The translations under genes and the position numbers were made by a program. The notes beneath the pieces are model-generated. The model worked only from the letters and a program-made list of their open reading frames with translations, did no database searches and was not told the DNA's origin. From Octopus vulgaris (Eukaryota), in the NCBI GenBank assembly GCA_951406725.2, contig OX597819.1, forward strand, positions 107,694,001 through 107,758,000: DNA of 64,000 bases, in the 5' to 3' direction. Below, one piece after another: positions 4,281 through 56,703 of this stretch. Each line of letters starts with the position of its first letter. The first letter of the stretch is position 1.

Positions 4281-4343
4281 TTTGAGTACGTCAACGTTTC
4301 AAGATTAGCCAAATAAAATCAGCATTTCTATCGTCAGCTCAAA
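4281..4343 (-). ncRNA. Type I hammerhead ribozyme
   Basis: UUUGAG-CUGACGA-[stem II]-GAAACGUUGACGUA-CUCAAA: 6-bp stem I, full core, GUA cleavage triplet. Confidence 0.85.
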
Positions 4344-4851
4344 ATTTCTTAATTTGGATTTGGAAACACTAAAAAGAAGGAACTTTACCTATCAGCGAAG
4401 TTATCGCTTCAGATGAACCACTCCGACTAACAGTGTAAACAAATTCAAAATGCGCAAGGCGTAAATTTCTTCAATCCGCTTCCACCCACGTGGTCTATCT
4501 AGCAAACATTATATTTTAACCGCGAGAACCGAGGCAGTATGACCGAGAGAAATGAATTATAATATCAACAATTGAGGGTAAAATTAATTAATTAATCAAT
4601 TTCACCAAGTGTTCAGTATGTAAAAGGACCATTTAAGGCGAATTCAAAATTTTACATTATATAATTAGGGCTTAGTAAAATAAATTACTTTGCCACATAC
4701 TGAACTTAGTAGAAATAGCAGCAAAAAAAAAAAAAAAAATTTCTTAGCATTTCTACAACTTAAAGAAAATTTCTCTCAGATAATGTTTACTCCAGATAGC
4801 CCACGAAGGTTTGGAGGTAAATACAGAAAAATATCACAAGTACATAGATCG

Positions 4852-4914
4852 TTTGAGTACGTCAACGTTTCAAGATTAGCCAAATAAAATCAGCATTTCT
4901 ATCGTCAGCTCAAA
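4852..4914 (-). ncRNA. Type I hammerhead ribozyme (second tandem copy)
   Basis: Identical to 4281-4343. Confidence 0.85.
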
Positions 4915-5761
4915 ATTTCTTAATTTGGATTTGGAAACACTAAAAAGAAGGAACTTTACCTATCAGCGAAGTTATCGCTTCAGATGAACCACTCCGACTA
5001 ACAGTGTCAACAAATTCAAAATGCGCAGGCGTAAATTTCTTCAATCCGCTTCCACCCACGTGGTCTATCTAGCAAACATTATATTTTAACCGCGAGAACC
5101 GATATATACACATGCATATTAGTTTGTGCGTCTGTATGTGTGTGCATATGTGTGCATGCGTGCGTGTATGTGTGAAAGAGTTGAATATAAATGAATTGTC
5201 TCCTACAAGGTTTTATCAAGCGTTAAAAGCAAAACATTATTCTTATTTATGTGATGCATAAACACACATAACAAACACAATGTTCAATCCAAAAATAGAC
5301 ATCGGCCAAGATTATACATTTCCCACAAGAGAGGAATTAGTGGAGTTAGTCCCAAAACGAAAAAATATTGAGTTTCAAATGGAAGTAAATCTCAAAAAGG
5401 GAGATGTGTAAAAAAAGAATTATTCACTTCCAAAAGAAGTCAATCTCAAAAGGGGAGATTCTGTAGTGATAGACATTAACACACCTGTGTTTAAAACATG
5501 GACTCGCTGGATTGTTATATTGTTGATGACGTTAGAGGTCGTTTTTGAATCTTGCGTTTTTGGGGGTAGAAATAAAAAAAGTACGTCTTGTGCAGACATT
5601 GGTTTTACCTCCGCTTCGTTAAATTATATATCCAAACGTGTGTGTGTGTGTGTTTTGTGTGCGTTTGTGTGTTTGTGTCTGCATTTGTCTCCCGTAACCG
5701 CTTGACAACCGGTGTTGGTGTATTTATGTCCCCGTAACGTAGCGGTTCTGCAAAAGAGAAA

Positions 5762-5910
5762 TCCGAATGTATTTTTGCTCAGCTGAAAACAGTTTTGGTA
5801 TAAACTTGGCAGATACAGGTTTCATATCCAAATCTTCAGTGATAACGGACTGAATTGAACCGCAACTAATCTGCACATCCTCTGATAACTCACGGATGGT
5901 GATTCAACGG
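5762..5910 (-). pseudogene. mariner transposase fragment
   Basis: Translates ITIRELSEDVQISCGSIQSVITEDLDMKPVSAKFIPKLFSAEQK (second HTH plus WVPHEL-equivalent linker). Confidence 0.75.
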
Positions 5911-5913
5911 TCA

Positions 5914-5971
5914 GTTATGGACGTACGTTTCTGGATTAGAATCAAAGATTCATTTCCTTCATCAACATAAT
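5914..5971 (-). ncRNA. Hammerhead motif, U3 variant (inverted copy)
   Basis: Reverse complement of 6338-6395 with a few substitutions. Confidence 0.6.
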
Positions 5972-6337
5972 ATTTCGGTACATAAACCTAGATTTTGTTA
6001 TAAAGACCCTCTTTGTTATAATTATATAAACTTTTACCGAATATGGTCCTTTTCCATACCGAAAAAACTGCTTGGTGAAATTTGTTGATTTTATTAAATT
6101 AATTATATTTCACCCTTTATCTGTATTGATTACTTTACTCCCCTAAGACAGAACAACGAATTTATTTTCGGCAGTATTATTTGTAACTCACATGTGAAAA
6201 AATTCTGGAGGGAAATACGAATTCACTTGTCTATATAAATGTGGATATGCTGATTAGCTTCTGTATGCCCCGATGTCGCCTGGTCGGAAATATGGAGGGT
6301 AGGATTTCCTAGCATTTCCAGGTTTATGTACCGGAAT

Positions 6338-53325: not shown

Positions 53326-53560
53326 GGCAGCGAGTTGGCAGAAACGTTAGCACGCCGGGCGAAATGCTTAGCGGTATTTCGTCTGCCGCTACGTATTGAG
53401 TTCAAATTCCGCCGAGGTCGACTTTGCTTTTTATCCTTTCGGGGTCGATAAATTAAGTACCAGTTACGCACTGGGGTCGATGTAATCGACTTAATCCGTT
53501 TGTCTGTCCTTGTTTGTCCCCTCTGTGTTTTGCCCCTTGTGGGTAGTAAAGAAATAGGTA
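53326..53560 (+). mobile_element. SINE family B, near consensus
   Basis: GGCAGCGAGTTGGCAGAAACGTTAGC...GTCGACTTTGC...AAAGAAATAGG. Confidence 0.9.
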
Positions 53561-53928
53561 AAAGTTTCGGGATGTGAGTTCAAATCGTTTGGGCCCCACT
53601 AAATGTTTTCTTCATAGAGTATATTTGGATCAATATATGTATATGTGCAGCCACACATATACATATAAAGGCATATACTATGTTAGCCATTTCAATTTAT
53701 ATTATTTTTAGTGTCACGATTGCTTGAGGAGTGGACAATGTATCTAACATTAAACAGTACATTTTCATTTCTATATTATCTCTCTCTCTCACACACACAC
53801 ACACTTTCTACTCTTCCTCTCTGTTCACACAAACACGCACACATGCATATATATATATACACACACACACACACACACACACACACACATATATATATAT
53901 ATATATATATATATATATATATATATAT

Positions 53929-54352
53929 AGGTGCAGGAGTGGCTGTGTGGTAAGTATCACATGGTTCCGGATTCAATCCCACTGCGTGGCACCTTAGGCA
54001 AGTGTCTTCTGGTATAGTCTCGGGCCGACCAAAGCCTTGTGAGTGGATTTGGTAGATGAAAACTGAAAGAAGCTCGTCGTATATATGTATATATATATAT
54101 ATATATGTGTGTGTGTGTGTGTGTGTGTGTGTGTGTGTGTGTGTGTGTATGTCTGTGTACGTTCCCCCAACATCGCTTGACAACTGATGCTGGTGTATTT
54201 ACGTCCCCGTAACCTAGCTGTTGGGCAAAAGAGACCGATAGAATATGTACTAGGCTTACAAAGAATAAGTCCTGGACTGGATTTGCTCGACTAAAGGCGG
54301 TGCCACCAGCATAGCCGCAGTCAAATGACTGAAACAAGAAAAAGAGTAAAAA
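53929..54352 (+). mobile_element. SINE family A
   Basis: Homology to the other family A copies. Confidence 0.9.
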
Positions 54353-55548
54353 CACAGCCACACTGTAGGTTAAATTACAATGTAAACACATTCTTTCTAT
54401 GTTAGTAATGTTCGGGCGTACCATATTTTCTTTTCCAAGACCAGATGCTTATGGGCCAGTCATAAATAAAAGCTAGCACTATGATCTATAACCTAATTTG
54501 CTTATTTCTGCTCTCTGAGGTCTAGTTATTGATTAGGTAATATCTGTTTATACACAACATCGCCTTGTAAGAAGGGGCAACATGGAAGCTGAATAAGATT
54601 TCGAAATTTCCTAGAGGGAGAGCGTATTTGTGTCTTTTTATCCTCATGTATCTAACAATTCTTGGGAGATCCCTATATATGAGTGTAAAAGTATACACAG
54701 TAGAAAAGCATTCTGAATTAACATGAATAATCTACGAGTAGAGATAAGGAAGAAATTTTTAAGCATATTTTTATTCAAAATTTTGGAGGTAAATGTTACA
54801 TTACAACTTAGAATTTAAATATATTAAACATTACAAATTAAAATGGGGAGAACAGGGGTGGTTCGTAGAGAAAGCTGAAAGAACAAAGAAAACACTGATT
54901 TTAATAGAAAATACCGTACACATATTTTAGTGAATTTAAAAGTTATATGTGAAGTTTATTTTAATGGACATTTAGAGTTATAATATGAAAAACGTAAAAT
55001 GTTTTCTGTGAAATGTATTTTTGTAAAATATAGTTTTCTAGAATTATTATATTCGTTGGAAATTCATATGTATTAGTCCAATATCCAATAATTTCATTCT
55101 ATATGTAATTATAGCTGATTCAAAACGTAACGCTCACCTGTTGAAATTGTGAGATTAGCTCCGGCTTCTTAGTAGTGTAAAATCCTTTGTTAAAACGCTA
55201 GATATGGCACCTGATTGACAGACATAAAGACTACAAGATAGATATGTTATTAAGAGAGATAGATATATTCACCGGCAAATACAAGCAGATTGATAGGCAG
55301 CTAAACTTATAAATATGTGTGTGTGTATGTGTGTGTTACACACATATATATACATGTACAAATATATATCCATTTATATGTATATACATATATATATATA
55401 CACACGCAAACACACACACACACACACATACATATATATATATATATATATATATATATATATATATATATATATATATATATATTATATTAGAGAGAGA
55501 GAGAGAGAGAGAGAGAGAGAGTTTTAGAAATTCCTTGATACAGTTATA

Positions 55549-55925
55549 ATATTTGGAGAGATTTTTTCTCAAGGCGTTAAGATTGAGAAAAGAACATTTT
55601 TAGAAAGTCGAAAGACATTAACCTTTGGGGAGAGATTTCACAAAATAAATTAAGAGAACGACCTTCTCCGGAAGGCAAAAGAAGAATATTTCATAAGGTT
55701 TCTGAATCCGAAACTAAACTGTAAATAGTCAACAACAATTATATTGAAAGCATCTTCCACTATATATAACACGTGATTGAAAACGTTAAGAACTGAAAGC
55801 GCTTGCACATCTACAAAAGCAAAGCCCACGCACATTTTGTGAAATCTCTTCCCAAAGGTTAGTGTCTTTCGACTTTCTAAAACGGTTCTTTTCTCAATCT
55901 TTGAAAATAATTTTCTCTCGAAACA
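55549..55925. repeat. Inverted-repeat element, probable pLTR relic
   Basis: ~55550-55646 inverted to ~55834-55924; internal GAAACTA...TAGTC half-hammerhead. Confidence 0.65.
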
Positions 55926-56074
55926 TACATATGTATATGTATACGTATATGATACATATATATATATATATATATATATATATATATATATATATATATA
56001 CATATACGTATACATATACATATATATATATACATATACATGCATATATATATATATATATTTATATATATATA

Positions 56075-56703
56075 ATAATTGATATAGGATAAAAAAATTT
56101 TCGGGAAAAAATTTTATCAATGGCCAGCATATCAAAAAATGCCTTTAGAGGTAAAATTTATACATAATTTACAAGATAAGGGCAGAACAAAAATTCTAAT
56201 GCCAGATACGCCGAAACAAAAAATTGTCGATAATCATTAAATTTATGCGTCTCGAAACAAACCGATAGAAATCTCTAAAAAAATTCGTTATTACCGTATT
56301 GGTCCAATTTCGGGGTTAATTCACAAGAAATGTTCCCCTCTTCAGCGGCACATACGCGAGATATAAATGAAATACTTATTCATACCCATGGAAGAAGCAA
56401 GCACCAAGTCCCGAGCAGACTTAAGTACCCCAAATATATCCAAAATAGAAAAATCTTCGGCGCACCTCGAGACACGTGTGATTCGAACTAGAAACTTTCA
56501 CAGAGTGATAGAATCCGTAAGTGAACACTATTCTATTTATAATTGATATAGGATAAACATTTTTTCGGGACGGTAATAACGAATTTTTTAGAGATTTCTA
56601 TCGGTTTGTTTCGAGACGCATAAATTTAATGGTTATCGACATTTTTTTTGTTTCGACGTATCTGGCATTAGAATTTTTCTTCTGCCCTTATCTTGTAAAT
56701 TAT
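56075..56703 (-). mobile_element. Non-coding hammerhead element: 464-bp unit, 32-bp terminal direct repeat and inverted arm
   Basis: ATAATTGATATAGGATAAA at 56075 and 56539; 56164-56297 inverted to 56570-56703. Confidence 0.85.
56292..56350 (-). ncRNA. Type I hammerhead ribozyme
   Basis: UGCCG-CUGAAGA-GGGG(loop)CCCC-GAAAUUGGACCAAUA-CGGUA. Confidence 0.88.

Follow-up and report, generated by a model that had tools for sequence, protein, structure and literature searches.

We analyzed 64,000 nt of Octopus vulgaris DNA (assembly GCA_951406725.2, contig OX597819.1, positions 107,694,001 to 107,758,000; hereafter the window) for type I hammerhead ribozymes and for the elements carrying them, which we compare below with Penelope-like elements (PLEs). 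The window contains 13 hammerhead copies of eight families (A, 4281/4852; B, 5915/6338; C, 6868/10704; D, 26350/27087; E, 28773; F, 45280/45488; H, 51020; I, 56292), located in eight insertions, each with at least one 3' end at a (TA)n array. The insertions, their hammerheads and the one open reading frame (ORF) retained are as follows.

3990-5102, minus strand: insertion A, a non-coding unit of 573 nt (3990-4562) and a second head-to-tail copy (4563-5102) lacking 30 nt at the 5' end; 3' end in (TA)n
4281-4343, minus strand: hammerhead A1, intact core, U.U at 10.1/11.1, stem III strand ACGUUGACGU
4852-4914, minus strand: hammerhead A2, same sequence as A1
5909-6696, plus strand: insertion B, made up of an inverted fragment (5909-5989), the 3' end in an additional upstream copy (5996-6126) and a 571-nt unit (6124-6696), then (TA)n
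5915-5970, minus strand: hammerhead B of the inverted arm, C3U, stem III insert CGUACG
6338-6395, plus strand: hammerhead B of the main unit, C3U, stem II weakened
6833-10888, minus strand: insertion C, a 5'-truncated Hydra-clade element (10497 to 6833) head-to-head with a plus-strand copy of its pseudo-long terminal repeat (pLTR; 10494-10817) and a 70-nt tail to 10888; both ends (TA)n
6868-6945, minus strand: hammerhead C, intact core, 51-nt stem II region, stem III insert CAUAUG
10704-10781, plus strand: copy of hammerhead C, G12A
9304-10497, minus strand: ORF C, open, 397 aa, with reverse transcriptase (RT) thumb, Asn-rich spacers, CxCx5C linker and GIY-YIG endonuclease with CxxC and CxH; no CCHH and no RT core
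26317-27215, no single strand: insertion D, an old head-to-head pair of ~420-nt 3' fragments, arms 89% identical over aligned bases
26350-26396, minus strand, and ~27087-27127, plus strand: hammerheads D, the first with two core changes, the second with a deletion
28590-29008, plus strand: insertion E, a 407-nt non-coding unit after an 18-nt copy of its own 3' end, flanked by two TA arrays
28773-28844, plus strand: hammerhead E, intact core, stem III strand ACCGGU
45262-45625, no single strand: insertion F, a young palindrome of two 139-nt 3' fragments (139/139 identical), the right-hand fragment followed by a tail up to (TA)n
45280-45330, minus strand, and 45488-45538, plus strand: hammerheads F, both intact, stem III with an 8-nt loop
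49307-51709, plus strand: insertion H, inverted 107-nt 3' end, decayed thumb/endonuclease (49408-50418), a later short interspersed element (SINE; 51146-51575) and 3' end; both ends (TA)n
51020-51115, plus strand: hammerhead H, G8U, 67-nt stem II region, stem III insert CGCGCG
56075-56712, minus strand: insertion I, made up of an inverted fragment, 32 nt of the 3' end copied upstream and a 462-nt non-coding unit, then (TA)n
56292-56350, minus strand: hammerhead I, intact core

Hammerhead motifs

Hammerheads were sought on both strands with a type I descriptor that accepted up to one mismatch in the core, plus one at the stem II base; 25 local dinucleotide shuffles of the window served as background. 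At a score of at least 7 the descriptor gave 10 matches (4281, 4852, 5915, 6868, 10704, 28773, 45280, 45488, 51020 and 56292) against a shuffle mean of 0.12 (maximum 2), and at a score of at least 10 eight matches against none in the shuffles. The original prediction, made from this DNA alone, had proposed about seven hammerhead types and named a scan against shuffled sequence as the check; the motifs thus lie above background. The copy at 26350 was reached only in a looser scan at two mismatches, alongside many weak and probably chance rows, while those at 6338 and ~27087 were identified by hand reading. Between them, these approaches recovered all seven types where they had been placed, together with an eighth, perfect-core type at 28773-28844 (plus strand) that had been overlooked. 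The motif set is real and dense, and the observation is confirmed.

The cores had been described as complete or near-complete. An intact core (CUGANGA, GAAA, UH and stems I-III) is indeed present in seven of the 13 copies, representing families A, C, E, F and I, but the other six carry changes: C3U in both B copies, G12A at 10704, A6G and A15.1G at 26350, a 12-nt deletion at 27087 and G8U at 51020. The G12A copy at 10704 is predicted to be dead. All eight families have a stem III insert of 4-14 nt, among them CAUAUG, CGUACG and CGCGCG exactly as originally given. The designation "minimal hammerheads", however, fails in its strict, stem-III-less sense, the form found being one with a short palindromic helix III. 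The stem II region measures 27-67 nt in six of the eight families, and four have a 10.1/11.1 mismatch. In pairwise alignments between families only A and B are related (z = 20; all other pairs z < 3); these two have ~150 nt of 3' domain in common, with differing hammerheads. No hammerhead was found among the Rfam window matches listed (150 of 283 rows), which comprised microsatellite-driven microRNA models and one U6, nor in three local searches; the Rfam hammerhead models may fail to cover the form found here.

Two further regions resemble hammerheads. A ninth, very old type occurs at 31015-31061 (minus strand) and 33205-33246 (plus strand), in two diverging arms ~66% alike, with a perfect first core and palindromic stem III at 33211-33240. 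At 19565-19660 (plus strand), CTGATGA and GAAA surround a plausible stem II; stem III is missing, and this is possibly a decayed hammerhead.

Anatomy of the insertions

The element 3' ends were set independently, from partner copies, and 11 of 12 lie at most 7 nt from a (TA)≥5 run, which narrows the earlier description of the elements as next to microsatellites. Conversely, 10 of the 33 long TA arrays in the window abut a hammerhead element. In every insertion the hammerheads are sense-oriented towards the TA junction, at 17-300 nt from the element 3' end. Four insertions, C, D, F and H, each consist of two 3' fragments joined head-to-head. For the other four, A, B, E and I (units of 573, 571, 407 and 462 nt, respectively), the unit is preceded by a head-to-tail copy of its own 3' end, ranging from 18 nt (E) to nearly the whole unit (A), and B and I have an inverted fragment in addition. 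In C and F one arm extends ~70 nt further before its TA run, corresponding to the PLE "tail". The two A copies are identical at 539 of 540 positions and have no Hydra coding match; the C arms agree at 321 of 324. Arm identity ranges from 100% (F) to 89% (D), so the insertions are of different age. Together they make up 10,680 nt, ~16% of the window with the SINE removed, which is probably richer in hammerhead elements than the genome average. Families B and C meet at the TA array 6695-6832, where the 3' end of B borders one side and that of C the other.

Relation to Hydra-clade Penelope-like elements

ORF C had 5093 relatives at E ≤ 0.001, and a profile was built from 21 long sequences among the best 150. 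It places ORF C at the thumb and endonuclease, the latter C-terminal after the thumb, and recovers the same arrangement, decayed, in H (49408-50418), as well as decayed remnants at 3234-3443, 17117-17401 and 17774-17935. DKT is present in 15 of the 21 long relatives and DKG or DKA in none. In an alignment of relatives including ORF C, CxC..C, CxxC and CxH are invariant and CCHH is absent; 11 of 76 aligned relatives match the Pfam GIY-YIG family, though ORF C itself does not. The structure model of ORF C has a mean predicted local distance difference test (pLDDT) score of 91, and its modeled domain superposes on I-TevI (Z 8.8, root-mean-square deviation 2.5, 90 aligned residues), followed by T4 EndoII and UvrC. 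The named nearest proteins among ten relatives come from Octopus bimaculoides and Argonauta hians, and the O. bimaculoides relative groups with ORF C at full support. A sequence search of solved structures returned none for ORF C, and viral contigs gave no match to a full-length relative. The possibility of an "endonuclease-only" element is ruled out, as the beginning of ORF C, at the inversion junction, falls within the thumb. ORF C contains two low-complexity spacers, one with 22% Asn, and its frame is still open; the spacers resemble the Asn-rich inserts of rotifer PLEs. The regions 2852-3900, which has inverted arms, and 17117-17935 are decayed Hydra remnants with endonuclease or thumb traces and no recognizable hammerhead.

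In its CxCx5C linker, CxxC, CxH and absence of CCHH, ORF C agrees with the published description of the Hydra clade (Craig et al., 2021, PMC8557442), in which CxxC precedes E and CxH follows N; the clade is further described as having RWK and DKT in the RT. Its families are nearly all inserted in (TA)n and carry canonical hammerheads, and they include one from Octopus, Hydra-1_Obim. Like them, the window elements have a GIY-YIG endonuclease at the C-terminus, without CCHH but with the linker, CxxC and CxH, a type I hammerhead near the 3' end with a short near-palindromic stem III and often U.U, (TA)n junctions, inverted 5'-truncated arms and a tail. PLEs at large are recognized by inverted arms, partial tandems and an optional tail (literature drawn on further: PMC8967140, PMC3846280). 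The hammerhead of Hydra-1_Obim, in turn, matches none of the eight in the window by eye.

For comparison we used the best 78 of at least 404 confirmed Hydra-like metagenome loci, 53 of which have a sense and four an antisense hammerhead. The distance from ORF end to hammerhead is mostly 70-310 nt in these loci. Among 50 distinct metagenome Hydra hammerheads, U.U occurs in 22, and by our own count from the supplement of PMC8557442 in 14 of 26 Hydra rows; the 10.1/11.1 mismatch was therefore rejected as a novelty. Stem II, by contrast, is longer in six of the eight window families (27-67 nt) than in these 50 hammerheads (10-25 nt), for which we found no report in the literature searched.

Many of the metagenome loci (L002-L077) share a small hairpin, GCUC...GAGC with a 2-nt bulge, located mostly 25-50 nt behind the hammerhead. 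The pattern is present in 34 of 40 metagenome Hydra copies, compared with 5 of 29 upstream controls and 8.8% of shuffles. Thirty-five loci were hand-picked and, two being left out, 33 examples aligned: 95% of cells pair, two-sided changes number 20 versus 6.9 in shuffles (with the structure drawn from the same alignment and kinship uncontrolled), and two pairs covary. A covariance model built from the metagenome loci only was then applied to the window.

45552-45604, plus strand: tail hairpin of F, a compensatory variant and the top window match (17.2 bits, E ~0.09)

The second window match (15.3 bits) lies inside a long interspersed element (LINE). We found no report of the hairpin in the literature, although subscription papers, Repbase or preprint supplements may hold one.

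Taken together, we attribute the window hammerheads to the pLTRs of Hydra-clade PLEs and their derivatives, with a probability of roughly 0.85. The Penelope link of the original prediction is thereby supported and narrowed to one clade, on the strength of endonuclease motifs, (TA)n target and hammerhead form. Several points weigh against this attribution. Pfam gives no match for ORF C, and Foldseek nothing at E ≤ 0.001 for its model, though the same proteins top the list. The RT core is absent from the window (C is truncated at its 5' end), and RWK and DKT are unseen in the window itself. The truncated C copy alone measures 3.66 kb, exceeding the usual size because of a 2.4-kb 3' region that sets it apart from the clade; Hydra PLEs are generally below 3 kb, which is a tendency and not diagnostic (PMC8557442). 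For six families (A, B, D, E, F and I), the window contains no coding remnant and comparison with the 78 metagenome Hydra loci gave no DNA similarity, so that their clade rests on target, anatomy and hammerhead form, which would place them with Hydra. Finally, the covariance model misses the tail of C at E ≤ 10, this tail fitting the loose pattern only, and the hairpin pattern is absent from A, B, E, H and I.

Proposed insertion mechanism

We propose that the GIY-YIG endonuclease of the element nicks (TA)n arrays, and that the RT, primed by the nicked DNA, would start copying the element RNA internally, downstream of the hammerhead. Copying would mostly stop early or switch strand or template, leaving 3' fragments in two arrangements, head-to-head in C, D, F and H and head-to-tail in A, B, E and I. 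Since only 17-300 nt separate the hammerhead from the 3' end, almost all stumps would retain it, and many families would thus yield many hammerhead types in a single window. The cDNAs span the cleavage site, and the template would thus be uncleaved or religated. Both the priming steps and any cleavage are conjectured from the DNA.

The closest precedent is the anole Poseidon element PAc (Frangieh et al., 2024, PMC11167929), in which RT starts at two internal sites around a stem-loop, hammerhead cleavage needs protein and the main template is uncleaved RNA. The window elements similarly show two alternative 3' ends (those of C and F are ~70 nt apart) around a stem-loop, cDNA across the hammerhead and AT-rich targets. 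Yet PAc belongs to another clade, its hammerhead overlaps the ORF start, and the Hydra hairpin has its own conserved sequence. Since this hairpin lies between the two alternative 3' ends, it is a putative RT start or binding signal.

Non-coding units and alternative explanations

Four head-to-tail units of 407-573 nt, A, B, E and I, are protein-free, three of them are strongly folded, and they appear to be new. Their folding z-scores against shuffles are -9.2, -8.2, -5.1 and -2.1, respectively (with 100 shuffles, -6.3 for A and -8.5 for B), as compared with +0.9 to -1.9 for C, D, F and H. Among 65 control tiles z ranged from -4.6 to +2.4, 64 of them having z ≥ -2.9. Of 37 Hydra pLTR windows, 11 were discarded, being either duplicates or not long enough; in the 26 that were kept, z lay between -7.6 and +1.7, and each of the three lowest values comes from a window with an inverted arm or an antisense hammerhead. 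Thus, A, B and E are non-coding and highly self-paired, and I weakly so. The A monomer folds at -138.7 when circular versus -144.1 when linear. An initiator-like TCAKTY is present at two of five unit starts (background 2.3% per 20 nt), a weak lead only. The motif pattern shared by the A and B 3' domains had no metagenome match. Among 24 sequencing runs listed for 3993-6694, 20 contain some of that region and two at least half of its words, with no RNA run among those containing it; we draw no evidence from these runs.

We give about even chances to a reading in which A, B, E and perhaps I have fixed ends and are truly non-autonomous, retrozyme-like elements. Cutting at two hammerheads would then turn a tandem transcript into a structured, possibly circular monomer of 400-570 nt, which the Hydra RT/endonuclease would insert in trans into (TA)n. 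This fits the head-to-tail copying of the own 3' end in all four units and in none of C, D, F and H, their 5' ends at 167-219 nt upstream of the hammerhead, and z-scores that go below -2.9 in three of the four. It also fits the 3' domain retained by A and B with a compensatory change (in three sequences only) next to differing hammerheads, and the 165-300 nt from hammerhead to TA, as opposed to 28-98 nt in 15 of the 16 metagenome copies with a TA run at most 1 kb downstream. On the other hand, a single insertion per family leaves fixed ends unsupported, I has no clear structure, the antisense strands fold well too (z -4.0, -7.7 and -4.1), and two whole tandem hammerheads occur in A only. Moreover, 210 nt also separate the 5' start of the ORF-linked C pLTR copy from its hammerhead, and, leaving the SINE aside, ~165 nt follow the hammerhead of ORF-linked H.

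With metazoan non-LTR retrozymes (PMC7229834; bioRxiv 10.64898/2026.07.22.740005), A has in common a non-coding, strongly self-paired tandem with a hammerhead per unit, whereas B, E and I consist of one unit and a partial one, two whole hammerheads being found in A only. The units are 407-573 nt long, compared with 170-400 nt (PMC7229834) or 51-972 nt (bioRxiv 10.64898/2026.07.22.740005) in retrozymes, and unlike those they end in (TA)n with PLE-type inverted arms; they are known here from DNA alone. One of nine retrozyme dimers cleaved in the latter study. In the literature we found neither a non-autonomous Hydra element nor an octopus hammerhead census, with the same reservation for subscription papers, Repbase and preprint supplements as above; the passages of PMC8557442 available mention neither such units nor the tail hairpin.

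An alternative reading, at odds a little short of even, is that A, B, E and I derive from autonomous families with ORFs elsewhere, either as solo pLTRs or as ordinary copies truncated at the 5' end. Their similar 5' ends would then reflect a pLTR promoter start or a common RT stop. RT of the anole PLE starts internally near the 5' part of the RNA (PMC11167929), which would yield pLTR-only copies; such solo pLTRs have been described, the C pLTR copy has the same 5' distance, and the mostly 70-310 nt between Hydra ORF end and hammerhead mean that a stump could be devoid of coding sequence. By itself, this accounts neither for the very strong folding of A, B and E nor for the absence of the tail hairpin from all four. 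Given the antisense folding, the one insertion per family and the similar C pLTR 5' end, solo pLTRs stay a close rival.

That the motifs are chance matches in AT-rich, palindrome-rich DNA, or parts of miniature inverted-repeat transposable elements (MITEs) or Naiads, is highly improbable: the lack of hammerheads among the Rfam matches listed, the inverted ends of the insertions and the (TA)n targeting of Naiads in Octopus would suit it, but it is contradicted by the 10 matches versus 0.12 in shuffles and by the sense orientation towards the TA junction in every insertion, while Naiads have an N-terminal endonuclease and no canonical hammerheads, unlike C and H with canonical hammerheads and the endonuclease C-terminal after the thumb.

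Stem III and the question of dimers

Lunse et al. (cited in PMC6765202) reportedly proposed that PLE hammerheads act as dimers. In seven of the eight families the stem III strand, if fully paired, leaves a loop of 0-1 nt; calculated folding energies are +0.4 to +6.0 kcal/mol as a hairpin and -5.5 to -13.3 kcal/mol as a homoduplex. In these seven, stem III is too short to close alone, so that cleavage is expected to depend on either a second copy, as in a tandem transcript, or assistance from protein, and dimer cleavage is plausible from the model. The stem III of F, with its 8-nt loop, is predicted to fold alone as a weakly stable hairpin (-1.4), self-pairing between copies being also possible. 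Only stem III energies were used, as dimer-minus-monomer totals favor dimers in all eight families but are biased by loop terms. Two sense hammerheads in tandem occur only in A, and inverted copies on opposite strands cannot dimerize within one sense transcript.

Dimers have also been proposed for PLE hammerheads, with weak dimer cleavage and many divergent families per genome, by Cervera and de la Pena (2014, PMC4209133). Similar to those, the window hammerheads have type I topology, a short palindromic helix III, many divergent families per genome and opposite-strand pairs 100-700 bp apart. In contrast to strict minimal hammerheads, defined by the lack of helix III and an unpaired base at the 5' end of stem II (PMC4209133), they keep a stem III of 3-5 bp and are without the single extra base at 9.1.

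Other features of the window

Further features of the window are:

34294-37352, minus strand: LINE with RT and APE-type endonuclease frames
43705-44487, minus strand, and ~27300-28400, plus strand: transposase-like remnants, presumably Tc1/mariner; Pfam gives only a weak unrelated match for the former
57414-57950, plus strand: strongly folding region (z -6.0) adjoining a TA-rich array, with long internal inverted repeats and no hammerhead; its start presumably resembles Helentron-associated elements
61747-61841, plus strand: U6 small nuclear RNA copy with an internal deletion (65 bits), a SINE directly after it
11247-11402/15507-15662, 55579-55646/55834-55901 and 40829-40871/42032-42074: inverted-repeat pairs without hammerhead match, found by microsatellite-masked self-BLAST of the window; probably DNA transposons or MITEs

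Scale and significance

In O. vulgaris, 190 PLE families make up 6.83% of the genome, 31 of them recently active (PMC13282606); the words "hammerhead" and "ribozyme" are absent from the main text of that paper. With Hydra PLEs already published as combining hammerheads, (TA)n and an Octopus family, and with these 190 PLE families, the radiation envisaged by the original prediction is largely known, and its interpretation is partly supported: right in kind and mostly in print. What looks new is the variety, the short, strongly folded protein-free units and the small conserved hairpin. The window is best read as debris of several Hydra-clade PLE families with two testable leads.

Thirteen copies in 64 kb correspond to ~200 per Mb. 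Scaled by the published PLE fraction and extrapolated from this one selected window, the 2.8-Gb genome would hold roughly 2 x 10^5 hammerheads. Loads given elsewhere are >6000 in coral, ~5000 in mussel, 9000 in Xenopus and up to 120,000 in axolotl. In its boldest and, as a whole, rather unlikely form, our proposal is that octopods host a class of protein-free retroelements directed to (TA)n, 400-570 nt long (A, B, E, I), whose RNAs fold compactly, are freed and circularized through dimeric hammerheads of enlarged stem II and are mobilized by enzymes of the Hydra clade, and that Hydra RTs choose two start sites around a conserved bulged tail hairpin.

Should this not hold, the window would be ordinary PLE debris in a repeat-rich genome. 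Should it be true, up to ~200 hammerheads per Mb, in the order of 10^5 copies, would be among the densest animal ribozyme loads known, and the tail hairpin would give a sequence-level handle on the start of PLE reverse transcription. If A, B and E are non-autonomous, they would represent in an invertebrate the intermediate between PLE pLTRs and retrozymes listed as untested in bioRxiv 10.64898/2026.07.22.740005. For the role of PLE hammerheads and the rule of internal RT initiation, the five intact-core families, the natural dead mutants and F, predicted to fold alone, form a panel for monomer-versus-dimer comparison, and the tail hairpin offers a specific, mutable candidate RT start signal for the whole clade.

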